Shown one piece after another: positions 1,758 to 17,206 of a stretch of 61,574 bases of DNA (within the stretch, counting starts at the first letter, position 1; the number at the start of each line of letters is the position of its first letter). The notes beneath the pieces were generated by a model. The model saw nothing but the letters and a program-made list of their open reading frames with translations. It ran no database searches and had not been told where the DNA came from. A program made the position numbers and the translations under genes. Source of the stretch: a bacterium (GTDB taxonomy: Bacteria > Patescibacteriota > Saccharimonadia > CAILAD01 > GCA-016700035); contig JADZGC010000017.1 of assembly GCA_020854115.1 (NCBI GenBank), forward strand, positions 1 to 61,574, read 5' to 3'.

Positions 1758-3023
1758 CTAGCTCAGTCGCAGGTCCGTAACACCGGCGAATTTTGCTATC
1801 TTCTCCGCATCACTCTTGATACCTTTCACCGAGTTGTAGATTGTATCGGCAAATAAGCCAACCCCGAGACCTACAAACTTATTGATGAGTCGAATCCGGC
1901 CCAGCTTGTCCGCGCGCGTTCTCTCGGCAGTAATATCTTTCTTGAGGAGCCCCAGGGCAATATCTGCAGTGGCTTTCTGAGGGTTACTCGCGAGCTCTTG
2001 AGAGAGGTCGGGGTATTCGGTTAGCATTTGTCGCGAAATTCGTATGGCCGATTCTGCCGAATACTGTGGATGTAGCGGTGAGTTGCGACGCAAGTCTTGG
2101 TCGAGATCATCCTGTACTCCTTCAAGCCTAGACATGTTTGTTTCTACAGTATCGCCTGCCTGTCTGCCTAGTGGTCTCGCTTCTACTTCACCATAAACAC
2201 TCGTCAAGACTTCTTGTGTGGCTGATTTGTCTTGTGCGATATCCTCTGATAATGATTTAAATTTTTTTGACTCTCTTCTGTCTAAGAGCATGAGAGAAAT
2301 TTTATCAAGGGTAGTCCGGCATGAAAGATATGCGCCGAGAAACGGGAATACTCCATCTATAGCTTCGGCGATCGGCTTCACTTGCTCGGGTAGATAGTTT
2401 TTTGCCGTAACAGCAGCTGCACCCAACACACCAACACCGATCGCGATTCCGCGCATGACTTTGTTCTGGCGGATACGGTCAACCATTCTGGTGGGCTTTT
2501 CTTTGGTAAAATCGCGCCTGGATTCTTCTCGATAGAATTGCTCACGAGCAACCGCATCAACGATGATGTGTCCGTATGTGCCGAGCAAATCTTCGCGTGA
2601 CAAAGTGGTCTCACCGGCCTGATGAAGGCTAATCTTGGTAATTATTTGCTTTAGGTACCCAGAGCTTAAAGCATTCTCTGGAGATATTTGCAGTACATCC
2701 ATCAAATAGTCGCTAAAGCAGTCGAAATATTTCCGCTCGGCTTCTTTAACTTTTGCTTCTCGGTCGGAGCGATGCAGAAGCTTGCCTGACGAGTCTTGCT
2801 GAGCATACACATAAGCTTTTCGAGCCTTTGCCAACGCTACATCGCTGTCGCGCACTGTGTTCGCTTCTGTTTCGAGGTCAGCATCGGATTCACTCTCGAC
2901 TGATCTTTGATATTGGCCGTATATTTTGAGAAGTGCAACTTTATTTGTCGCGTCTATACCAGCCTGCGTAAGCACTTCTCTGCTGCCCTCATCAAGCTCC
3001 CCTGACCCATCGAGAGCAAGCAA
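1758..3023 (-). CDS. Hypothetical membrane protein
   Basis: 421-aa ORF whose track start is TTG, so the true start is uncertain. Hydrophobic segments are GIAIGVGVLGAAAV, VFPFLGAYL and FVGLGVGLF. No recognisable domain. Confidence 0.45.
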   Translation of the reverse strand: MLALDGSGELDEGSREVLTQAGIDATNKVALLKIYGQYQRSVESESDADLETEANTVRDSDVALAKARKAYVYAQQDSSGKLLHRSDREAKVKEAERKYFDCFSDYLMDVLQISPENALSSGYLKQIITKISLHQAGETTLSREDLLGTYGHIIVDAVAREQFYREESRRDFTKEKPTRMVDRIRQNKVMRGIAIGVGVLGAAAVTAKNYLPEQVKPIAEAIDGVFPFLGAYLSCRTTLDKISLMLLDRRESKKFKSLSEDIAQDKSATQEVLTSVYGEVEARPLGRQAGDTVETNMSRLEGVQDDLDQDLRRNSPLHPQYSAESAIRISRQMLTEYPDLSQELASNPQKATADIALGLLKKDITAERTRADKLGRIRLINKFVGLGVGLFADTIYNSVKGIKSDAEKIAKFAGVTDLRLS

Positions 3024-3058
3024 CGCACGAATCGAAGCATTCGTAAGCTTTGACGCCC

Positions 3059-3244
3059 CTAGCCTCTCCTGGGCCGCTCCAGCTTCACCCTCGCGCGCCG
3101 CAGCACTATTTTATAATCACGATAGAGTTCAACCTCCTGCCGCGCAAGTATGTGCCTTAGATCACTTGATAATCGCGCAGCACGATCGGGGCCCTCTTGT
3201 CCATCAACTTCTGAATTATTCGTGAGTTCTGCTGTGCTAGGCAT
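3059..3244 (-). CDS. Hypothetical small protein (61 aa)
   Basis: Its ATG (3242-3244) lies 1 nt after the stop of the upstream 102-aa ORF (TAA 3246-3248). Only this tight spacing suggests co-translation. No homology recognised. Confidence 0.3.
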   Translation of the reverse strand: MPSTAELTNNSEVDGQEGPDRAARLSSDLRHILARQEVELYRDYKIVLRRARVKLERPRRG

Positions 3245-3245
3245 A

Positions 3246-3554
3246 TTATTGAGGCGTATTCTTCAGGCTAGTCCGAACCGCTAAGACACCGGCATGCAGA
3301 TTCTGGATTTTCTCATTCTGTATGCGCTCAATTCGAGTTGATAGATCTGGTACTTTTGATGACAAGAAATCTTGTAACTGTACCGTGGCTTGCGATGTGT
3401 CTTTTGCTAGTATTTCTTCGAATACTACTTTATCGTGTGGAGGGAGTATGTCCTCAAGTTCTTCAGCGAGGGCGAGTAGGACGCTTTCTTGAAGAGCTGC
3501 AATGACGCTCGAGCGCTGCGGCTCGGGTAACTCCATAATCATCGAGTCATTCAT
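3246..3554 (-). CDS. Hypothetical small acidic protein (102 aa)
   Basis: ATG-initiated ORF and first gene of a minus-strand run 3554->1758. No family recognised. Confidence 0.35.
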   Translation of the reverse strand: MNDSMIMELPEPQRSSVIAALQESVLLALAEELEDILPPHDKVVFEEILAKDTSQATVQLQDFLSSKVPDLSTRIERIQNEKIQNLHAGVLAVRTSLKNTPQ

Positions 3555-3585
3555 ACTACGATTATATAGAAGTTGTGCTTATTGT

Positions 3586-4008
3586 CTAAGCCTCGCCGTG
3601 CTCGCCCGCTTCGGCGGCATCTGCTTCTTCCTTAGTCTTGTGTATCGTGCCTGGTGCATGCTCGGCTGGGCTATAGAGGGAGTAGACTTTGAGGTCACTG
3701 TCACCGATGTTTTTGACATTGTGCCACGTGCCTGCGGGTATGAGCACTGCTGTGTCGGGCTGGAGCTCGGCGGTTTTCTCTACGCTTTCTCTGCTCTCGC
3801 CTGTCAGTAGTTCGGCGGCGCCAGCTTCTACACGCAAGAACTGATCAACATTGCCATGCACTTCCAGCCCAATCTCACTGCCTACTGGAATCGACATGAC
3901 GGTCAACTGGGTATGCTCCCCGGTCCACAGCGTGGTGCGAAAATTTGTATTATTCTTGGTCTCTTCTTCAATTTGTACTACATATACTTTCCTATCATTC
4001 TCGGTCAT
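3586..4008 (-). CDS. Cupin-domain protein
   Basis: GSEIGLEVHGNVDQFLRVEAGAA...LIPAGTWHNVKNIGDSDLKVYSLYSP matches the two-motif cupin_2 pattern (G-x5-H-x-H ... P-x-G-x2-H-x3-N). Confidence 0.75.
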   Translation of the reverse strand: MTENDRKVYVVQIEEETKNNTNFRTTLWTGEHTQLTVMSIPVGSEIGLEVHGNVDQFLRVEAGAAELLTGESRESVEKTAELQPDTAVLIPAGTWHNVKNIGDSDLKVYSLYSPAEHAPGTIHKTKEEADAAEAGEHGEA

Positions 4009-4108
4009 GATGGCATCTCCCGTTTACTCCTCTATTATACGCGCTCGCGCCTACCGATTCTATCTGATAAATGCTATAATGCTGGGGTTCAGCACGAAAT
4101 ATATGTAG

Positions 4109-4185
4109 AGGGGTGTAGCTCAGCTGGCTAGAGCGTCGGTCTCCAAAACCGAAGGCCGCAGGTTCGATCCCTGCCACCCCTGCCA
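4109..4185 (+). tRNA. tRNA-Trp (anticodon CCA), CCA encoded
   Basis: Hand-folded cloverleaf: acceptor AGGGGTG/CACCCCT, D arm GCTC-AGCTGGCTA-GAGC, anticodon arm TCGGT-CTCCAAA-ACCGA, T arm GCAGG-TTCGATC-CCTGC, then G-CCA. Confidence 0.9.
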
Positions 4186-4190
4186 AGTCG

Positions 4191-4363
4191 GATTTTGAAC
4201 GAAGCTCGAACCTTTTTCGAGCAAGATAATTAAATCCCGCCCTGCGGCTCGTCCGCCGGCATAGCCAGCGGCCCAAACCAAAAGATTTTTCTTCATGATT
4301 GTTTTGAATTTCGGCGGGTGGTTTTTTCTTTTTAATTGAATTCGAAAAATATTTTGGTTTGCC
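4191..4363. repeat. Left copy of a 173-nt inverted repeat (IR-L)
   Basis: Reverse complement of 8681-8853 with 3 mismatches by hand alignment. Contains the hairpin GCTCGAA-CCTTT-TTCGAGC (4204-4222). Track ORFs 4120..4440(-) and 8646..8882(+) give near-identical peptides, confirming the inverted duplication. Confidence 0.9.
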
Positions 4364-4372
4364 GAGCTAGCC

Positions 4373-4406
4373 TTACAATAACACCATTTTTCTGGTAACA
4401 TTGTAA
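4373..4406 (+). promoter_or_regulatory. Inverted repeat TTACAAT-N20-ATTGTAA upstream of the HTH gene (candidate operator / C-box-like site)
   Basis: TTACAAT at 4373-4379 and ATTGTAA at 4400-4406. A related TACAATTTAATGTTA lies at about 4440-4454, just before ATG 4465. Confidence 0.3.
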
Positions 4407-4464
4407 TGTAGTTTGAGGTCAGTTTTCTCATTCCACCCATACAATTTAATGTTACTATTTTAAT

Positions 4465-4662
4465 ATGGTAGAGTCAAACAAAGTAAAGAAGTTACGAGAA
4501 AAGTTAGGACTATCCCAGGAAAGGCTGGCTCGGTTAGCCGATGTCTCAACTAACACGATTATCAACATCGAGTCTGGCAAACAGACAAATCCTACGATTT
4601 CAACAATAAAAAAGATAGCAAAGGCGCTCAACGTTAGTGTTGATGAACTGTTAAGGAAATAA
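4465..4662 (+). CDS. XRE-family helix-turn-helix regulator (controller-protein-like)
   Basis: 65 aa. LREKLGLSQERLARLADVSTNTIINIESGKQ.NPTISTIKKIAKALNVSVDELL is a textbook HTH_3 sequence. The gene stops 2 nt before the methyltransferase ATG. Confidence 0.85.
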   Translation: MVESNKVKKLREKLGLSQERLARLADVSTNTIINIESGKQTNPTISTIKKIAKALNVSVDELLRK

Positions 4663-4664
4663 GC

Positions 4665-5885
4665 ATGGCCAAGTATCTTACAAGCGCAAAAAATGCAAAA
4701 AACGATGAATTTTATACTCGTTATGAAGATATATCGAAAGAGGTTGAGGCATATCTAGACTTTGACCCTGATGCTTTCAAGGGCAAGGTTGTCTACTGCA
4801 ACTGTGATGACCCATTCGAGAGCAACTTTTTCCGTTACTTTGCGCTTAATTTTAAGAAACTTGGCCTCAAGCAACTCATAACGACCAGCTACAAACCTTC
4901 TCCAGTTGCCAACACGCAGTTGGGACTGTTTGGAGATGATAAGACGGTAGCAACGTCCAAAGGTCGTCCAAAAGTAACCGCCAACAAGTTCATCATCAAT
5001 GAAGTAAGTGATTTTGACGAAGATGGCTCGTTCAATCTTCAAGACGTTGCAGAACAATTGAAGGCAAACAAAAACAATGAGTGGTCGCCTCTTGAAGGAG
5101 AAGGCGATTTTAGAAGTCCAGAATGTGTGGATTTGCTAAAGCAGTCAGATATTGTAGTAACCAACCCTCCTTTTAGTCTATTCCGCGAGTATGTGAAGCA
5201 ACTGGTTGATCACAAGAAGAAATTTGTGATTATTGGCAACATGAATGCAATCACCTACAAAGAAATATTCCCGCTAATCGAAGATGACAAAATGTGGCTC
5301 GGTAATGGCTTTCATGCGGGCAACGCATATTTCTTTACTCCCAACGCGCGTGAATACGCCTCTGGTGTATATGACGAAAAAACAGGACTCGTAAAGTTTC
5401 GCAACGTTTGTTGGTTTACAAATATGGATCATGGCAGACGCCACCAACCACTGCCACTAATGACTATGTCCGATAACTTGAAATATTCGAAGCACAAAGA
5501 GATTAAGGGCAAAAAGGCATACGAAAAGTATGACAACTACGATGCTATCGAGGTGCCATTCACCGACTCAATTCCTGATGACTATGATGGAGTTATGGGA
5601 GTGCCGATTAGCTTTCTTGACAAATACAGCCCTGAACAGTTTGAGATTGTCGGTTTAACTTCAGGCCGAGATGAGTTTAAGGTTGGGCCTTCGAAAAAAT
5701 ACCAAAATCCTCAACAACATAACAAGGACGGCTCCCTAACAAACGGCAGCAAGACAAACACCCGCGCAACTATACTTCTAGATAAAGTGCCTGACGGCAT
5801 TTATTACACGGCTGATAATGCGGATGGCCCGCTAATGATAGTTTATGCGAGAATCTTGATTAAGCACAGAAAGGCGAAGAAATGA
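4665..5885 (+). CDS. N6-adenine DNA methyltransferase, EcoRI-methylase-like family
   Basis: N-terminal [16 protein letters not shown]...[19 protein letters not shown] and catalytic [10 protein letters not shown] (NPPF motif IV), then [19 protein letters not shown]. As I recall these are hallmarks of the PF13651-type adenine methylases. Confidence 0.8.
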
Positions 5886-7045
5886 AAACAGCTTTGAGAA
5901 CCGACATCACAGTCAAAGATATTTGCGACGGATTTGTTTATAACGAGCTTGAAGGAAAAGGTTTGTTTGGTTTGTCGGGCAAGCTGACCATTCAGCCAGA
6001 GTATCAACGAAACTACATTTACGCTGACGGCAAGAAAGATGTTGCGGTCATTCATTCAATCCTAAAGGGTTATCCGATAGGCTTGATTTATTTCAATAAA
6101 GTAAGCGACGATAATCTAGAAGTTCTAGATGGCCAGCAACGTATTACTAGCTTTGGGCGATTTGTGAATGGCAAGTTTGCCATTAAAGACGAAAATGGAA
6201 TGGAGCAATATTTTAGTGGTATTGCTGCCGATAAGCAGGCGAAGATTCTAAACACCAAACTTCTTATCTATGAATGCGAAGGCACTGAAAGCGAAATCAA
6301 GGAGTGGTTCAAGACCATCAACATCGCTGGTGTTCCACTAAACAGTCAAGAGCTTCTGAATGCCGTGTATTCTGGACCATTTGTAACTCTTGCCAAAGAA
6401 GAATTCAGCAACAGCCAAAACTCTAACATCCAAAAATGGAGTGCGTATGTTTCTGGCAGCGCAAACAGACAAGATTTCTTGGAGCGAGCACTCGATTGGG
6501 TCAGTAAAGGAAATATTGGCAACTACATGAGCCGCCATCGAAAAGACGATAACATCACTGAGCTAAAAACCTACTTCAATACTGTGATCGACTGGGCTTC
6601 GAGCGTCTTTACTGATGTTGAGGGTGAAATGCGCGGGCTTGAATGGGGGCGACTATACGAAACCTACCACAAAAATTCCTACGACCCTGCTAAGGTGTCC
6701 GGTGATGTGCATAAACTTTACGGCGACCCTTACGTCAAGAATCGCAAAGGAGTTTTTGAGTTTATTCTTGGCGGCCTTACGGACACAAAACTACTGGATG
6801 TTCGTGTCTTTGACGAAGCAACCAAAAAATCAGTCTACGCTACTCAGACGAAGGCGGCAGAAGCTAAAGGAACGTCTAATTGCTCGCACTGTGCAATTGG
6901 ACACGATGTAAACAAAGAGAAAATATGGAGCCTGAGCGACATGGACGCTGACCATGTTGCCGCCTGGAGCAAAGGCGGCGCAACCTCTATCGATAACTGC
7001 GAAATGCTATGCAAGACCCACAACCGCGCAAAAGGAAATCGATAA
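5882..7045 (+). CDS. DUF262 (ParB/Srx-like, GmrSD N-domain) fused to a C-terminal HNH nuclease
   Basis: The ATG overlaps the methylase TGA (ATGA at 5882-5885). It carries the [13 protein letters not shown] (DGQQR) motif. The C-terminus reads CSHCAIGH...[32 protein letters not shown], a Cys-flanked HNH finger. Confidence 0.8.
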
Positions 7046-7048
7046 GGT

Positions 7049-8608
7049 ATGCCGAGTCTATCGTGGCAAACGATGGTAGACTTTGTAACCTGTATTGAGC
7101 GATGGCTCGACATAAACCTATCCCATGAGGCGTTGATAGCTATTCCAGCCTTGTTTGTTGCTTTGCTTGTGCCAATAGCATTCTTCTTGATGGAACGCAA
7201 AGACTTATACGGTTTTGACAAGAACGTTATTCTGGACAAAATTGTGCTGGCTAGAGTATCCATACCAATGGTCTTTCTGGTATCCATAGCCCTGTTATTT
7301 AACATAACAACTCTGTCAGTGCTTTTCACCACCTTGCTGCTATTGGTGGTTATGGTCGTCTTAATACGAGTTTATAAGTGGATGGCGTCAGTAGAAATCT
7401 TGAAATACAAAACCACTTACAAACAAGATATGCGTCTACGATTTATACGTAGTATAAAAAATGACATCGAAAAGGTAGACACTTGGGCAATCATCTTAAA
7501 CGATGAGAAACTACTGGAAAAGAACCAGCGTGGGTTGGTTGCAGAGTTTATAGCTGCCGTCAAAAACATAAAAGACAGCAAAAACCGCTACCCTAAGTCC
7601 AATTTACTCGGACTAATGAGCCGCAACGTAAGTAAGGTAGACTTTGCTGATATTCAATCTTACGATGACTTAGTGCAATACTCTATTGAATATTTTCCGG
7701 AAATGCGTAGAGTCCGTACGCAAAGAAAACAAGCGACTAACAAAACTAACCAAGAAACCTATCCTCCCTACCAGCAGAAGGAGCTGGCTATCAACCTACT
7801 TAAGATTGCTTTGGACAAGAAGATTAGTGATATTTTTGATCACATATACTTTACCGCTATCAAAAAGTATATCGCAAAGGACGGCGTAGACGAGGCTGGG
7901 TTTATTCGTGACTTCTTACCAGCTTACGTGCATGTTGTTAAAGAGAACGAGGAATATGACGCTAAAAAACTCTGGCAAGAATTGTCCGATTGGGTTGTGA
8001 CCAAAGAACTCCTTTCTAAAGAGGAATCTCGGCAAAAGACCATTTCCTTATTGAACGCCTACATGGACTCCATAGGACAGCGGGCGCACGCAGATACAGA
8101 ATTGCCACAACACGAAGTAAGAGTTATCGACGATGTAACTGAGCGCATGCTGCCAAATATAAACGTGTCATTCTGGTTTGATATCATGACTTTCTACAAC
8201 AGTGGTTGGGGCTTAGATGAGGGCGAGGATAGCACACATGGTCAGGTCAGAAGTCACGTAAGTAGAAGGAGAGATTTTGGGTCATTTAATGCTCTTGGCG
8301 ATATAGATTGGAGTGATAACGAAGAGGAAAGGCTGAAGGCATACGAGGCAGAAGCCAATAGACAGGATGAGGAAACTATGTATATCTTAGGACTTATTTA
8401 CCCTTGGCTGCGTAATCCCAAAGAAATTCAAAAAGTTCTCAACCAGATACAAATCATAGAGAAAGAAAAATTATTTGATACAGAGAGCCACGAAGCACGA
8501 CGGCTTGAGTCATTAAAGAATCGCTTTGAGAAAATTAGAGCTTACACCGACAAAATGATAGCCGAGCAAGACAGTAAAAAGCAGAGCAAAAAGAAGAAGC
8601 AAAAATAG
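7049..8608 (+). CDS. Unknown 519-aa protein with three N-terminal TM helices and a large helical cytoplasmic region
   Basis: The ATG lies 3 nt after the nuclease stop. TM segments are ALIAIPALFVALLVPIAFFL, VSIPMVFLVSIALLF and VLFTTLLLLVVMVVLI. The remaining ~400 aa are charged and helical with a KKQSKKKKQK tail. No family recognised. Confidence 0.6.
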   Translation: MPSLSWQTMVDFVTCIERWLDINLSHEALIAIPALFVALLVPIAFFLMERKDLYGFDKNVILDKIVLARVSIPMVFLVSIALLFNITTLSVLFTTLLLLVVMVVLIRVYKWMASVEILKYKTTYKQDMRLRFIRSIKNDIEKVDTWAIILNDEKLLEKNQRGLVAEFIAAVKNIKDSKNRYPKSNLLGLMSRNVSKVDFADIQSYDDLVQYSIEYFPEMRRVRTQRKQATNKTNQETYPPYQQKELAINLLKIALDKKISDIFDHIYFTAIKKYIAKDGVDEAGFIRDFLPAYVHVVKENEEYDAKKLWQELSDWVVTKELLSKEESRQKTISLLNAYMDSIGQRAHADTELPQHEVRVIDDVTERMLPNINVSFWFDIMTFYNSGWGLDEGEDSTHGQVRSHVSRRRDFGSFNALGDIDWSDNEEERLKAYEAEANRQDEETMYILGLIYPWLRNPKEIQKVLNQIQIIEKEKLFDTESHEARRLESLKNRFEKIRAYTDKMIAEQDSKKQSKKKKQK

Positions 8609-8623
8609 AGTTTGTCGCTAGAC

Positions 8624-8640
8624 CCGCGCCGAAGGCGCGG
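8624..8640 (+). terminator. GC hairpin after the 519-aa ORF (CCGCGCC-GAA-GGCGCGG), no T-tract
   Basis: Perfect 7-bp stem seen directly. It lacks a U-run, so intrinsic-terminator function is uncertain. Confidence 0.3.
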
Positions 8641-8680
8641 CTGGGGTGGGAGCGGCTCCCTCACTTGCTTTAGCAAGGGA

Positions 8681-8853
8681 GGCAAACCAAAATATTTTTC
8701 GAATTCAATTAAAAAGAAAAAGCCACCCGCCGAAATTCAAAACAATCATGAAGAAAAATCTTTTGGTTTGGGCCGCTGGCTATGCCAGCGGACGAGCCGC
8801 AGGGCGGGATTTAATTATCTTGCTCGAAAAAGGTTCGAGCTTCGTTCAATATC
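8681..8853. repeat. Right copy of the 173-nt inverted repeat (IR-R)
   Basis: Reverse complement of 4191-4363. This copy contains a perfect CCGCTGGC-TAT-GCCAGCGG hairpin; the left copy has one mismatch there. Confidence 0.9.
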
Positions 8854-8931
8854 TCCTGCCATACAGAACTTTCAACATATAGCCAATGTTTATATAAGTA
8901 TTGATTAGTTTTGTTCGTGGATACCCTGTAG

Positions 8932-10176
8932 CTATTCGTCTCGCAATGAGTCTACAGGAGATATACTTGCTGCTCGTTTCGCTGGAAAAATTGCGATAAC
9001 CACACCTATAAACGTCATAAATAGAATACTGAGAAGAGGTAGCCACCAAGGAGAAGAAACGACGGAGAAGCGCTCTGTGATGCCGCGGCCCGAAGATATC
9101 CCGTTCATGACTACATTTAACACAATACCCATAAGAGTTGATAGCGCGATACCAAAGATTGCGCCAATAAAGGACAATAATATACTCTCGTAGAGGAATA
9201 GTCGCATAATATCACGGTTTCTGACCCCCAGGGTAAGCATCAGGCTTATTTCCTTTGTTCGTTCAAGCAAGGCGACAGTCAGGGTATTGAACATGCCCAA
9301 AATAGCGATAAACATTCCGATTGCTCCAAACAGAACCAAACCGGCATTTACATATTTGAATAGTTGTTGAATCTGCGCAATGGTGTCAAGCGGTGATGTG
9401 GTTTCTAGGCCTAGTGCTTCAATATTTTTGCGAACATCATCGATTTTGTCAGTAGAATTTACCTGAAGTTTCAACTGCGTGTATTTATCTACTTCGGCTT
9501 TGGCAAAAATAGACGATTGGACAAAGAGTTCGCTGCTACTTTCGTTATTTGTAACACCTACGATCGTTACATCTTCTTGAATTTTTTTTGGCTTGTTGGC
9601 TTCTGCGTCAATCTGCAAAGCTAGGTTCATTTGTTGTCCGATAATATCATCAGCATTTTTGTTGATTGTACGGAGAGCAGCTGCACTGATGATGGCTTGG
9701 CTGCCGGGATTGGCTGATTCAAACCACTTGCCCTTAGACATATGTATCTCTGTTAAATCCTTGTAGGCATTGTCTACTCCATAGACTACTAAGTCGCTAG
9801 AATTCGAATCTGATTTTATTGTTCCTACACCCGTACTTATGCGTGATACAGAGTCTACATTGGCTATATTTGCTAATTGATTAGCGGTTTTATCGTTTAA
9901 TTTTATGATCTCAGAATTGGGTGTTGTGACGTCAACAATCTTTACCGAGCTATTCCCTACAATCTGTTGGGTCACGAGATTTTGTAGGCCAAGCCCTAAT
10001 GTGAGTAAGAAGTGAATAGCCCCAACCCCAACCATAACGCCTATAATTGTGAGTGATGAACGAAGACGTTTGGAGAGCAAATTTCTAGCAGCAATAAAAG
10101 CTATGATTTGTAAGCTCATTGATGTATTTGGTTTGCCCCGAAATAACTTGAGCTTGGAGAGAAGTTTATTATACAT
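8932..10176 (-). CDS. ABC transporter permease, FtsX/MacB type
   Basis: N-terminal TM, then a ~230-aa extracytoplasmic domain, then a C-terminal FtsX-like 3-TM block (LLERTKEISLMLTLGVRNRDIMRLFLYESILLSFIGAIFGI). Overlaps the ATPase gene by 8 nt. Confidence 0.8.
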   Translation of the reverse strand: MYNKLLSKLKLFRGKPNTSMSLQIIAFIAARNLLSKRLRSSLTIIGVMVGVGAIHFLLTLGLGLQNLVTQQIVGNSSVKIVDVTTPNSEIIKLNDKTANQLANIANVDSVSRISTGVGTIKSDSNSSDLVVYGVDNAYKDLTEIHMSKGKWFESANPGSQAIISAAALRTINKNADDIIGQQMNLALQIDAEANKPKKIQEDVTIVGVTNNESSSELFVQSSIFAKAEVDKYTQLKLQVNSTDKIDDVRKNIEALGLETTSPLDTIAQIQQLFKYVNAGLVLFGAIGMFIAILGMFNTLTVALLERTKEISLMLTLGVRNRDIMRLFLYESILLSFIGAIFGIALSTLMGIVLNVVMNGISSGRGITERFSVVSSPWWLPLLSILFMTFIGVVIAIFPAKRAASISPVDSLRDE

Positions 10177-10957
10177 CAGTTTTGATCCGTCTTAGCTCTT
10201 TGATGCGCTGTTCTGTCTGCTTGAAAATTCTTTCTGCTGTGCTCATATGCTGTTCTTTAGGAATATTGGTAACAACTCCGTCTTGGATATTCAGCAGATT
10301 ATCAGCAAATGAAATGTACTCCAGGTTATGTGTAACAAGAATGATGGTGCGCCTGAATTCTGTTTGGCAGTTGGCGAGTAATTTCATTATCTTGTCTCCA
10401 TTTGCGGAGTCCAGGTTTCCAGTTGGCTCGTCAGCAATGATGAGCAAGGGCTCGTTTACCAATGCTCTACCGAGTGCTACCCGTTGCTGCTCGCCACCAG
10501 AAAGTTTGTGAGGAAATTTTTTAGCATATGGGGTCATGTCAATTCTATTTAGTATTCCATAGATGATTTCATGAGCTTGTTTTTTGGTGTATCCGGTTGC
10601 ATATAAGGGCACAGCTAGATTATCAACAACATTAAGACTCTTTACCCAATAATTAGTTTGGTGAACAAATCCTGCCCGATTTGCTCTATACCTAGCTAGC
10701 CTATCAGCGTCTAGATCGTACAAGTTTTGATTTTGCACATAAACCGCTCCAGTTGACGGCTTCTGTAAACCGCCCAAAACATTTAGAAGTGTTGATTTAC
10801 CGCTACCCGATGCACCATATATAATATTGAAGCTATTTGCTCTTAGGCTAAAACTGACATTTGTGAGTGCGCGAACATCCGCATCACCAACCAGAAAATC
10901 TACTGATACATTTTCTACTCTGACGATTTCACTTTGGTCTTGTATATTTTTCCGCAT
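10169..10957 (-). CDS. ABC transporter ATP-binding protein (MacB/LolD-like)
   Basis: Walker A GASGSGKSTLLNVLGG, signature LSGGEQQRVALGRAL, Walker B LLIIADEPTGNLD. Starts 2 nt after the giant ORF stop. Confidence 0.9.
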   Translation of the reverse strand: MRKNIQDQSEIVRVENVSVDFLVGDADVRALTNVSFSLRANSFNIIYGASGSGKSTLLNVLGGLQKPSTGAVYVQNQNLYDLDADRLARYRANRAGFVHQTNYWVKSLNVVDNLAVPLYATGYTKKQAHEIIYGILNRIDMTPYAKKFPHKLSGGEQQRVALGRALVNEPLLIIADEPTGNLDSANGDKIMKLLANCQTEFRRTIILVTHNLEYISFADNLLNIQDGVVTNIPKEQHMSTAERIFKQTEQRIKELRRIKTDV

Positions 10958-10959
10958 AC

Positions 10960-13900
10960 CTAAAACCCGAATATTCCTCTCAAAGCATTAAGCACTATAG
11001 AGATTATGCTTTCTGATGCCTTCCCAATTATAGCGGACTTAGTTGAGCCTTGTGCTTCATTATTTGATCCATCTCTCGATACTGGTTGCATAGTATACAC
11101 ACTAGAGGTTGACAGATCTGACACAATAACCACATGTTCGGTTGTCAGACTATTTGCCCCACCTGTACGGTTGTTTAAGTTCTGTAGGCTTGCTCCTTGA
11201 CCATAGGCTACTTGACTGGTATCTTGTTCGTCGGTAGTCCAGGAGACAACGGCTTGGCCTCTTGCTTCCACACCTGTGCCTTTGATTGATGCCTCAATTC
11301 GCAGGTTAGAAATCTTTGGTGGTCTGGTATCCAGAGCGGTTTTGAAAGTTTGACGGTCAGATGTTGCAAGATTGCCAGCGACATCACGACTCTCAGCTAT
11401 GAGGAAGTAGTCACTGTTATCTTGGAGATCGTTAATGGTCATTTCGTGTTCGGTAACAAGCTTGCTATTAGCAATAGTCTTGCCTTCAGTTCCATTCTTA
11501 CCATAGTTTACTGTTGACGAGGTAGGGACATTGGTAGTCCAACTCACCAGCTGAGTACTGGTTGGCTGGTCTTTGACAGGTTGGAACTTCAAATTCGAGA
11601 TGGCAGGGCGAGGGGGTGTGGTGAAAGAATATATATCACCGGTATATTCACCGCCTTCGCTGTCGAGCAGAGATATTCGTAGCACATAACTGGCGCCATC
11701 GTCTAAACCATTTAGCTCAACCTGATAGGTAGATTCTGACAGCGAGGTATTTATCTCTGTCTTGCCGCCAAAAGCATCTGTCTTGCCGTAATAGACTAAA
11801 GCTTTGCTGGCATCTTCTGAGGTAAACTGCACAGTTGCACTGTTTAGTGTTGTTTTAATAACCTTAACATTTTTTACTATTGGCGCGGGTGCCGTTGTGA
11901 AACTAATTTCGTTTGATACACCGGTATTTCCGTCTTCGTCGGTCCAACGAGCGACAAAGAAGTAAGTTGTCCCCGCCTTGAGATTATCAAGATCAACAAT
12001 GTGACTAGTTACTTGTGATGAGTTGCTAATTTCCGAAGCAAAGTAGCTACCGCTGCTAGTTCCAATTGCTATCTTACTATCGCTTTCTCGATTTGTAACC
12101 CAGGTTATTTTTGCACGCTTGGTTGTAACTTCGGACACTACAGGATTTGAGAGCATTTCAGCTGGTTCAGTAAACTTCCCTGTCGGGATGATATTGGTGA
12201 CGGTACTGTACGCACCGCAGTTATTAGCGCTATCGCAGGCACTAATTTTGTAATAGTACCTAGTCTGGCTTAATCCACCGTCAACATAACTCAGCCCAGC
12301 AGTGGTAGCAATTTGGGCAAAACTATTGCCGTCGGTAGAGCGCATAACTTTGTAGGTAGCAACCCCAGAGCCCTGATCGACCGGAACTGCCCAGGATAAT
12401 GCAACCTTCCAGTTGCTTGTCGCTTTTGTAGAAACATCAGCAATTTCTACATTAGTCGGCATGCCAGGAGCAGAGGTATTGGCGGTAAAGGTTACGCTAC
12501 TTGCCGTAGCATAGTTAATGTTATTGGCTTCGTCCTTGGCTACTACATAGAAGGTATTATCCCCGGGTTGTGTTGCATATGGACCAGTCGGCAATGACGT
12601 TTGGCCAGCACTTGTGAAGTTACATGTATTTATTGTTGGCAACGTATTAATGGTATAGCAATATTCTAATGACGAAGGCTGGCCTACGAAGCTTGATGGT
12701 TCATCCCAGTCGAAACTAAAGGCGTTGTCTGTATTGCTAACGGGAGAAACTGTTACATTGCGAGGAGATGATGGAGCAGAAGTATTTATCTTGATGACTG
12801 CCGTCGTGTAGGTAGTAGAAAAGTTACCAGCCTGGTCAACGCCTCGGAAGTAGATAATATTGTTCCCTTCTATCAAGTTAGGATAATCATAAGTTGCATC
12901 AGTGCGATAAGATCCATTGTTGGGCAAGATATCACTCGTGTCTTGATTACCGTTATGATTGGCTCCATACCAAATACCCTCACCGCCTATGCGGTACTGA
13001 AGCCCCAGCAGTCCGGAGTGGGCATCGTTTGCAGATTCGCTACCGGTAGTTGGCCAAGTAAGGGTTACATCGCGGGTTGCCAAAAACTGCGATGGAGCAG
13101 AAATAAATCCAGGTGCAGCAGGAGCCGTATTATCAAATTTGAAGCTGAATGTTTCGCTTCCACCAACGAAAACATTATGTGAGTGATCGAGTGCTTTTAT
13201 ATGTAAAAAGTACGGGTCAGTAGACGATGAGAGAGCTGATCCTAGATAGCCAGATACAGCCAAGTCCAATTCGGTCGTAGCTATAGCAAAGGGGCACGTG
13301 CCATCGGTATCCAGCGGACTGCTGCCCAAAATGCCCTTGTCACTTACTGGATCTGCTAGTTCGCTCTGTCCAAGATATAAACAGTAGCCCTTAATGCCGC
13401 TTGCACCTGGATTGCCATCGTCTTGTGCAGGGTCCCAAGTAAAGTCTGGTGTGTTACCCGTTGCCCATCCCTCACTTGGAACTTGTGCACCATTCTTAAT
13501 CTGGTACATTGCGATATTGTCCGCATTTGAGGTAGGAGGATTAATATCGGGGTTAATGGTAACAGTTACACTTTGTAGCGTAATATCTTGTGCTCCATTG
13601 CTTGATAGGAAAGCCTTCCATTTGAACTGGCGAGATCCTATGGGAAATTCCTCGATATGTGCATTTATATCTACTGCCGTATTGTGGTCAGTTGCGCCGG
13701 CAGTTGTCCAAGTAGAACCATTGTAAAAGTACCATGTTGTACCATCATCATTCGATATTTGGTAGTATATTTCCCCGCCATTCTTGCTTGCGTTTTCTGT
13801 AAATGTCTTCCAACTGGCAACTGCAGGAGGATTGAAAGCAATATTTGATGTAATTGTGGGCGAGTCGGTTACTCTACGTTTACCAATGAACGACGCACCG

Positions 13901-16719: not shown

Positions 16720-17033
16720 CCTATGATTTCCCTACTCCCCGTGCGTGATTAATATAGATATTTTAAGATATTGCTTATGTATGTGCAATTTTTAATTTAA
16801 CGTCGATAATATTTACTATAGAATGCTTCTGGGTAGAATGGTTGTTTTTATGACTACTCAGATTAACAGATAACCGACCGTGGTTATTTAGGGTTGTTTT
16901 TCTACCACAACTTTTCTTAACAACACTTGCCACTAAGCGATTGGCTTTTCTCTAAAGCCTAAATATACCCTTCAAGACACTAAATATGGGGAGTATACTT
17001 TCTGCATGCTTTGCCGATTATGACAGACTCGGC

Positions 17034-17206
17034 TGAGCCTTTGGCTTAGTTATTTGACCCATCTCTCGATACTGGTTGCATAGTGTAGATACTAAAGGTG
17101 AAAGATCTGATACAACAATCACATGTTCGGTTGTCAAATTGCCTGCTCCATCAATAAGATTGTTTAAATCCTGCAAGCCTGCTCCTTGACTATGGGCAAC
17201 CTCGAC
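17034..17206 (-). pseudogene. Remnant of a paralogue of the giant gene's 3' end
   Basis: Aligns by eye, roughly four bases in five, to 11044-11216. The minus-strand translation VAHSQGAGLQDLNNLIDGAGNLTTEHVIVVSDLSP parallels VAYGQGASLQNLNNRTGGANSLTTEHVVIVSDLST of the intact gene. There is no start codon, and an in-frame stop lies just upstream. Confidence 0.6.

Follow-up and report, generated by a model that had tools for sequence, protein, structure and literature searches.

Long inverted repeats bound a polymorphic restriction-modification cassette beside a tRNA-Trp gene in a Saccharimonadia bacterium

The cassette between the inverted arms

The stretch of DNA considered here, referred to as the window, covers 61,574 nucleotides of contig JADZGC010000017.1 (assembly GCA_020854115.1) from a bacterium of the Patescibacteriota lineage Saccharimonadia. 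A tRNA-Trp gene and a convergent ATP-binding cassette (ABC) transporter operon flank a cassette of ~4.67 kb (4186-8854), which is bounded on both sides by inverted copies of a 173-nt sequence. We call this arm sequence element E, the short segment adjoining the right arm on the inside the right inner segment (RIS), and the whole arm-bounded cassette the unit. Between the arms lies a restriction-modification (R-M) operon with one additional gene. A sequence-only reading of the locus had described 173-nt inverted repeats with three mismatches at 4191-4363 and 8681-8853, starting 5 nt past the CCA of tRNA-Trp and enclosing one co-directional operon. A repeat search agrees exactly with these coordinates, ARAGORN places tRNA-Trp at 4109-4185, and the enclosed genes indeed form a single co-directional operon (4465-8608). 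Contigs and unitigs used for comparison are labelled L001-L026. The features of the locus are as follows.

4179-4185, plus strand: left CCTGCCA copy of a 7-nt direct repeat, identical to the tRNA-Trp 3' terminus (sequence reading)
4191-4363, minus strand: left arm E-L (core 4195-4363), reverse complement of E-R, outer end towards tRNA-Trp
4364-4464, plus strand: promoter/operator region of the C gene, 96% identical in L023 and L026 and 95% in L014, with short palindromes such as ACATTGTAATGT
4465-4662, plus strand: controller (C) protein, 65-aa XRE-type helix-turn-helix (HTH) protein (Pfam HTH_3 2.9e-20; PADLOC Control_protein 7.7e-13)
4665-5885, plus strand: type II N6-adenine DNA methyltransferase (M) of the EcoRI-methylase family (Pfam PF13651 1e-126; PADLOC MTase_II 1.6e-100)
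5882-7045, plus strand: restriction endonuclease (R) with GmrSD_N/DUF262 and HNH domains, 4-nt overlap with the M gene (PADLOC REase_II PDLC03418 2.4e-85 over the full length; Pfam GmrSD_N, HNH)
7049-8608, plus strand: 519-aa all-alpha protein, occupant of a variable slot (no Pfam or PADLOC match; AlphaFold2 pLDDT 81)
8612-8680, plus strand: RIS, a conserved structured non-coding piece adjoining E-R, with GC hairpin CCGCGCC-GAA-GGCGCGG, a tRNA-Gln match and hairpin CTCCCTCACTTGCTTTAGCAAGGGAG
8681-8853, plus strand: right arm E-R (core 8681-8849), outer end towards the ABC-transporter operon
8855-8861, plus strand: right CCTGCCA copy of the direct repeat
4109-4185, plus strand: tRNA-Trp with CCA anticodon and encoded CCA end (ARAGORN; Rfam tRNA, 71 bits)
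3586-4008, minus strand: cupin gene of the left flank (Pfam Cupin_2)
8932-10957, minus strand: FtsX/MacB-type permease and ABC ATPase of the right flank, convergent with the cassette (Pfam; ABC_tran precomputed in sister-strain contigs)

The arms are 98% complementary over 173 nt each and stand 4317 nt apart. Their three mismatches fall at 4194/8850, 4257/8787 and 4322/8722, and the likeness drops sharply at either end. They are the sole inverted repeat of at least 40 nt within the 61.5-kb window, and searches of it with BLAST and an nhmmer profile give no further copy of E. Each arm carries a 17-nt internal inverted repeat and both of the hairpins reported earlier, GCTCGAA-N5-TTCGAGC and CCGCTGGC-TAT-GCCAGCGG, the latter with a G.T in the left copy. 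Logan unitigs from two runs (L006 from SRR34420819; L007 and L008 from DRR774217) end exactly 30 nt (k-1) inside each arm. Such independent breaks are what a k=31 graph produces at repeats, and the arms are therefore not an artefact of assembly. A coding role for E was rejected. Two of its frames are open, but the ATG is lost in L013, differences among copies are mostly non-synonymous and no start or stop is consistent. The cassette had also appeared AT-rich by eye. Its GC content of 42.5% is indeed below that of the left flank (49.4%), but it equals that of the right flank (42.8%) and lies less than 1.5 SD from the mean of same-size windows (46.5 +/- 2.7%), and a compositional island was rejected.

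The constant part of the operon is a C-controlled type II R-M system. Homologues of the DUF262-HNH nuclease number over 8000 at E<=1e-30, and hundreds of these share 84-86% amino acid identity with it. Their source names include Patescibacteria, Bacteroidota (Brumimicrobium) and other phyla, and many lie on 2-7-kb contigs. EcoRI-family methylases usually target GAATTC, AATT or CAATTG. None of these sites is depleted in the window, and site avoidance thus gives no specificity for the R-M system. E itself contains GAATTC/AATT sites. The most under-represented 4-mers of the whole window are GGCC (z -4.7), GATC (z -3.6) and GTAC (z -3.3). A promoter-like site on the minus strand (4477 to 4449, TTGACT-17-TAACAT) lies inside the conserved promoter and C-gene start. 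Judged by its sequence, it would read outward through E-L on the better-folding strand of the element, which is only a lead.

The fourth gene encodes a 519-aa protein without a family match in Pfam or PADLOC. Its AlphaFold model (pLDDT 81) retrieves only generic alpha-solenoids from the PDB with Foldseek (E>0.06), and hydrophobic N-terminal helices in the model read as membrane-spanning. The protein is presumed to be a putative defence cargo. Homologues elsewhere are solitary and in unrelated contexts, and none is linked to E or to R-M genes. One homologue with 70% identity (L022, 7828-11880) lies 99 nt downstream of a tRNA-Asn and near a large serine recombinase, suggesting that this gene family may travel in tRNA-adjacent islands too. 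Recombinase domains of the transposase, integrase or invertase type are absent from the four enclosed genes, the nearest flanking open reading frames (ORFs) and ten further large ORFs of the window according to Pfam and PADLOC, in line with the earlier statement that no such gene lies inside or beside the repeats.

Allelic replacement, exchanged cargo and further copies of E

The tRNA-Trp site is polymorphic among closely related strains. L002-L004 encode an identical FtsX protein, and their flanks are 98-99.9% identical to those of the window, with 99.9% on the right. Between the same breakpoints they carry, in place of 4188-8849, an unrelated cassette of ~6 kb with a PLD-like gene, a CsoR-type repressor, a lactonase, DUF305/DUF4142 genes and a P-type ATPase. 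From its gene content, this alternative cassette reads as copper resistance. E is absent from L002-L004. Homology between the window and the copper allele ends between 4187 and 4188, 2 bases past the tRNA, and at ~8850-8855. These positions are the outer arm edges, and the arm-bounded unit is hence the entire allelic difference. Flank unitigs L001 and L005 from SRR34420819 stop at 4187 and 8856, which are polymorphic positions and not repeat boundaries. Both alleles therefore seem to coexist within this sample. No empty tRNA-Trp site without either cassette was recovered, with the empty junction taken as CCCCTGCCA joined to TACAGAAC.

Comparison with foreign copies and with the copper allele sets the core of E at 4195-4363 and 8681-8849, and the foreign copies have the same limits. 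The sequence TATCT[C/G]CTGCCATACAG is common to the window and copper alleles, and the final 4 nt of the right arm (TATC) are consequently flank. The left arm matches three of these four flank bases at the outer edge of the right arm. This is a weak hint that the left arm was possibly copied in situ from the right arm. A direct repeat of the tRNA-Trp terminus brackets both alleles, CCTGCCA in the window and CTGCCA in the copper allele. The sequence-only reading had set the inverted repeats apart from the direct duplications of tRNA 3' ends that tyrosine-integrase islands leave. The boundaries are long inverted repeats as it stated, but CCTGCCA, matching 6-7 nt of the tRNA-Trp end, does recur just outside the right arm. 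Divergence from the copper strain L004 is lopsided. The final 1.5 kb of the left flank (2700-4187 compared) hold 20 differences, 8 of them clustered at 3736-3751 in the cupin gene, and the first 2 kb of the right flank (8856-11000) hold 0. The copper cassette was also screened for true terminal inverted repeats. Its ends show only a 9-10-nt imperfect match, CAGA(T)ACAGT, which could be chance. Its right terminus resembles the outer end of E-R at 10/13 nt.

The closest relatives of the operon carry the same ends around different cargo. The three closest homologues of the nuclease (95-96% amino acid identity) lie on Logan unitigs, two of which, L023 (SRR26835473) and L026 (SRR34831164; 10 runs), start and finish in the inner 30-36 nt of E, in inverted orientation. 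As these unitigs end inside E, the comparison of E is limited to the visible ~30 nt. The recurrence of the inverted arms argues against a coincidental bracketing, which the sequence-only reading had considered. On the left, the window, L023 and L026 share E, the promoter and the C, M and R genes (2.7 kb), and on the right they share the ~67-nt RIS (8612-8680) and E. From the stop codon of the nuclease gene up to where the RIS begins, the three have unrelated content with sharp bounds. The slot holds the 519-aa gene in the window, a PDC-S06 AAA_13 protein (PADLOC 1.5e-235) with DUF2130 in L023, and two unknown genes plus a pair of CapH/CapP-like HTH and M78 peptidase genes in L026. None of the three cargo variants contains a recombinase domain.

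Conservation is highest outside the genes. Between the window and L023/L026, the visible 30 nt of E are 97-100% identical, the promoter region (101 nt) is 96% identical, and the RIS with E (97 nt) is 96-97% identical. The C gene shows synonymous divergence (dS) of 0.36-0.39. The M and R genes retain 84-89% nucleotide identity, with dS of 0.8-1.5 and non-synonymous divergence (dN) of 0.015-0.03. Ends that remain 96-100% identical at such synonymous divergence indicate that ~340 nt of non-coding DNA are either under very strong constraint or have been homogenised or spread much faster than the genes.

E is rare in accessible collections. An invariant 22-mer of E has 0 exact matches in 185,579 GTDB species genomes and in IMG/VR, and 2 in contigs of the Joint Genome Institute (JGI) metagenomes, both from one metagenome (Ga0079224; L012 and L013). 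A blastn search of E with the promoter against plasmid and phage collections finds nothing, and nhmmer detects no diverged copies across the window and 29 loci. These negatives rule against E as a dispersed repeat, and the concern that it might be a ubiquitous repetitive extragenic palindromic (REP) or terminator-like repeat no longer stands. Two further loci (L014, L015) were recovered by a protein search with a spurious ORF across E. Full copies of E occur in three other metagenomes. The copies are 93-97% identical to the arms of the window and share the inner boundary, beginning with GCAAACC, and the outer boundary, ending with CGTTCAA. In L014, E lies downstream of tRNA-Gln and is followed by the promoter of the window and the first 8 C codons (95% identical). 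The same locus contains a 17-nt direct repeat of the tRNA-Gln 3' end. In L013, E has tRNA-Gln on one side and the gene for a different C protein on the other, with a BsoBI-family endonuclease after it. A shortened E in L015 precedes a PLD-like gene, whose leader matches the copper-cassette leader. E is 94% identical between L013 and L014, and the tRNA-Gln genes only 88%.

The sequence abutting the outer end of E follows the neighbouring tRNA. It is TGGCTG, 6 nt and TTGAACG at the tRNA-Gln sites, and TGGCAG, 6 nt and TTGAACG at the right end in the window. TGGCTG and TGGCAG are the complements of the tRNA termini CAGCCA (Gln) and CTGCCA (Trp), and the motif thus tracks the local tRNA. Fragments of tRNA 3' ends form direct repeats of 17 nt in L014, 23 nt (22/23) in L012, ~24 nt in L009 and 6-7 nt in the window. 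L009, from a Candidatus Saccharimonas metagenome-assembled genome, has the best named relative of the FtsX protein (38% identity) and was the only distant relative found to carry the gene. At 1091-2615 it contains the FtsX homologue and, ~200 nt downstream, a convergent tRNA-Gln(CTG), with the ~24-nt duplicated tRNA 3' fragment between. This is the same convergent FtsX/tRNA hot-spot layout with scars only, analogous and not orthologous to the window. Structure, boundaries, allelic replacement, recurrence with variable cargo and the conservation contrast are thus direct observations, and establish a family of naturally polymorphic, arm-bounded cassettes with no recombinase, a constant C-controlled type II R-M module, a variable defence slot and a location at tRNA 3'-end hot spots.

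Several smaller observations accompany these loci. An identical 43-nt hairpin segment occurs in like orientation in L012 (1386-1635) and L013 (575-1007). E flanks it on one side in L012 and on the other, oppositely oriented, in L013, and the adjoining tRNA-Gln segment is inverted. Either an inversion or a pair of facing units could account for this arrangement. A conserved sequence of ~90-110 nt (CCCGAAACTTC...GGAAGnTTTCCTTGC...CCCGAATGC) follows tRNA-Gln 3'-end fragments in L009 (2345-2470), L012 (1418-1504) and L013 (921-1007). In L009 it resembles the 3' third of tRNA-Gln broken in the T-loop, and neither Rfam nor ARAGORN makes a call. Elsewhere in the window, a direct repeat of ~196 nt (77-81% identity) joins 11016-11211 and 17006-17200. 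One copy lies within the 3' coding end of a gene for a 1919-aa surface protein, and the other lies ~6 kb off, just upstream of that gene.

Possible routes of spread

We suggest, tentatively, that a non-autonomous defence cassette is mobilised in trans at tRNA-terminal motifs and that the E arms serve as its cis-acting ends. We consider this reading quite possible, if short of probable. An enzyme supplied in trans would recognise the arms, and the unit would enter or be exchanged in one piece at the 3'-terminal motifs of tRNA genes (CTGCCA for Trp, CAGCCA for Gln). The arms might also supply homology for swapping of the interior, which would keep them homogeneous. The suggestion draws on the allelic replacement at the arm edges, the E-bounded units with different cargo and the ends more conserved than the genes. 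It also draws on the occurrence of E at other tRNA junctions with the same limits, the motif tracking the local tRNA and the lack of a recombinase inside. From these patterns we infer the act of transposition or integration, the enzyme in trans and the role of the 7-nt repeat. Two of the earlier proposals for the locus, a non-autonomous cassette with terminal inverted repeats as its bounds and a landing pad at which a defence operon settled, both fit the new evidence, which does not separate them.

Several points weigh against mobilisation in trans. Neither an empty site nor a complete two-armed unit at another place in a chromosome was recovered, the unitigs L023 and L026 ending inside E, and no candidate trans-acting enzyme was identified. 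The 6-7-nt direct repeat also brackets the copper allele and may be a property of the site, such as an older attachment (att) scar, rather than an insertion duplication. Taken singly, E lacks terminal inverted repeats. The conservation of 173 + 67 nt is far beyond the need of ordinary transposase-binding ends. The lopsided flank divergence, finally, fits import by homologous recombination at least equally well.

Homologous recombination is the main rival. In this account E, the promoter and the RIS are only the homology arms of a fixed hot spot, where cassettes are exchanged by RecA in the arms or flanks after DNA uptake and no dedicated transposition takes place. The inverted orientation would persist for the simple reason that a cassette between direct repeats would be deleted. 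Natural competence is documented for Saccharibacteria, which integrate DNA via homologous recombination (PMC10633639). The mosaic of identity, with ends at 96-100%, C at dS ~0.36-0.39 and M and R at dS 0.8-1.5, resembles conversion tracts entering from the ends. The sharply bounded cargo swaps beside conserved sequence, the asymmetric divergence of the flanks from copper-allele strains and the lack of a recombinase in the scanned genes point the same way. What this account leaves unexplained is how E and the same promoter reached tRNA-Gln in other species and tRNA-Trp here without flank homology, why the bases next to E correspond to the end of the local tRNA, and where the second, inverted arm came from. 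As a complete explanation, a mere recombination platform is a serious contender that we nonetheless judge unlikely. It does not exclude mobilisation in trans, and the two could act together.

The fold of E raises the prospect of a role in RNA. A check of folding and covariation had been proposed for both copies, and only its first part gave a signal. The outward-reading strand folds better than dinucleotide shuffles in all copies (z -3.1 to -4.8), as does the other strand to a lesser extent (z -1.3 to -3.7), and the RIS with E-R reaches z -3.9 to -4.3. Across five copies of E, 0 of 38 predicted pairs show compensatory changes, as there is too little variation among them. What variation exists falls in hairpin loops and one variable patch, and two one-sided changes preserve G.U pairs on the outward strand only. 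In the centroid fold of the inward-facing strand, 3 nt separate a closed compound stem (CCCGCC...GGCGGG) from the conserved U6CU5 tract that follows it, and the outward strand has a hairpin 9 nt away from its end. A known RNA family for E was sought in Rfam 15, which returns only tRNAs (E<=1 in 3900-9200, L012 and L013; gathering score for the whole window). Directly beside its GC hairpin, the RIS agrees exactly with the tRNA-Gln 3' end over 11 nt (CCACCCCAGCC, minus strand), a score that 11/2000 shuffles reach. By its sequence, the match looks like a tRNA remnant with a terminator, or an att scar, within the unit.

E might accordingly act as an insulator that keeps transcription of the tRNA and of the convergent ABC operon from running into the cassette at both its ends, guarding the C-protein-timed expression of the nuclease, or it might be a stable 3' untranslated region or small RNA. 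The inverted symmetry would then follow from the need to meet incoming transcription in the same orientation on either side. Both arms do present the same strand to incoming transcription, E precedes two unrelated C-controlled R-M operons, and the stem before the U tract, the outward hairpin, the fold in all copies and the placement of substitutions would suit such a role. A simple terminator scan does not call E, however, and a convincing promoter belonging to E itself is not seen. Where synonymous sites are saturated, ordinary terminators do not keep an identity of 96-100%. Insulation leaves the allelic breakpoints at the arm edges unexplained, and neither compensatory pairs nor an Rfam match speak for it. 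We regard this role on its own as rather improbable. A programmed inversion for phase variation, with the arms as substrates of an invertase that flips the cassette, had been among the options of the sequence-only reading and is very unlikely. Inverted arms of 173 nt at 98% identity would permit flipping at least by RecA, unitigs cannot fix the orientation of the cassette, and the segment beside E in L012 and L013 occurs in opposite orientations. Yet no invertase gene is found in the scanned ORFs, and inversion would switch nothing because the promoter is inside the segment and both junctions are intergenic. The tRNA side is also joined to the promoter side in both the window and L014. An assembly artefact or a chance repeat is hardly conceivable. 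Only the general risk of metagenome assemblies speaks for it, while independent unitigs of at least four sample sets all stop at identical inner arm limits, full copies of E recur in other metagenomes and a 173-nt match with 3 mismatches cannot be chance in 61 kb.

A bolder version of mobilisation by the arms deserves mention, though we regard it as a long shot. E-bounded units could represent an undescribed class of non-autonomous mobile defence carriers in bacteria of the candidate phyla radiation (CPR). Their structured, ultra-conserved ends (E and RIS, possibly as RNA or folded DNA) would direct insertion beside tRNA 3' termini via a host enzyme or via the constant proteins of the cassette, the DUF262-HNH nuclease or the C protein, instead of a transposase. 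If the constant proteins were indeed the mover, the R-M module would mobilise itself plus whichever defence gene fills the slot.

Known systems and the meaning for Saccharibacteria-like bacteria

The closest precedent is the set of transposon-like R-M units with long inverted repeats and no transposase described by Furuta, Abe & Kobayashi 2010 (NAR 38:2428, PMC2853133). An example is a type II unit of Xanthomonas oryzae with 60/65-bp inverted repeats and an 8-bp target duplication, and the authors could not tell whether a trans-acting transposase or the R-M proteins move such units (PMC2853133). As in their class b3, an R-M operon lies within inverted repeats longer than 20 bp, here 173-nt arms around C, M and R genes, and no mobility gene is found among the enclosed or neighbouring scanned genes. 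The repeats are likewise missing from the compared strain (no E in L002-L004) and low-copy (2 in the window; the 22-mer 0 in GTDB). A short direct repeat stands outside the arms in both cases (CCTGCCA at 4179-4185 and 8855-8861). Here it may or may not be a target duplication, the copper allele being bracketed by CTGCCA too and no empty site having been found. The arms differ in their length of 173 nt versus 26-65 bp, and the arm sequence also occurs singly beside other cassettes. A variable defence slot, a conserved inner segment and arms far more conserved than the genes are further differences, as are the tRNA 3'-end site, the short repeat identical to the tRNA terminus and the CPR/Saccharibacteria-like host. 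The comparison strain here carries another cassette and not an empty site.

Other mobile elements share single features with the unit. Islands that target tRNA genes by tyrosine or serine integrases have the tRNA 3'-end location, strain-variable occupants and direct repeats of tRNA fragments in common with it. An integrase island was rejected, as the scanned ORFs contain no integrase and only 6-7 nt are repeated in the window, compared with typically >=15 nt, and the boundaries here are long and inverted. Composites bounded by miniature inverted-repeat transposable elements (MITEs), as well as non-autonomous DNA transposons, also have short non-coding inverted repeats around a cargo and no transposase inside. 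Individual copies of E, however, lack terminal inverted repeats, their termini GCAAACCAAAA... and ...GCTTCGTTCAA being not complementary, and E is not multicopy in accessible data (2 copies in 61 kb). E was therefore not classified as a MITE. We know of no cognate transposase for E. An integron cassette with attC was rejected because the ends GGCAAAC... and ...GTTCAAT misfit RYYYAAC ... GTTRRRY and the scanned ORFs hold no integrase domain. IS200/IS605 elements (palindrome-associated transposable elements, PATE) were rejected as well, given that the arms are inverted, the two hairpins of E differ in sequence and neither TnpA nor TnpB occurs in the scanned ORFs. P2/P4-like prophages and integrative elements are known for defence-gene hot spots with variable slots between conserved modules. 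The unit resembles them in its conserved modules around a sharply bounded slot with unrelated defence systems per copy. Unlike these, the carrier is only 4-6 kb in size and has no phage or conjugation genes and no recombinase.

The movement of R-M systems and small defence islands that lack a recombinase has been a question since 2010, and the tRNA-Trp locus is a tractable case. It provides a natural allelic polymorphism, seemingly within one sample, and at least three cargo variants with the same ends. The contrast in conservation singles out ~340 nt of non-coding DNA as the functional part. Mobile elements are scarce in Saccharibacteria-like bacteria. The units reveal modular defence in such bacteria, with genomes of ~0.9 Mb, in which a constant R-M module is combined with a swappable second system. 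Arms that turned out to be recognition ends or an insulator would make useful genetic parts for Saccharibacteria-like organisms.

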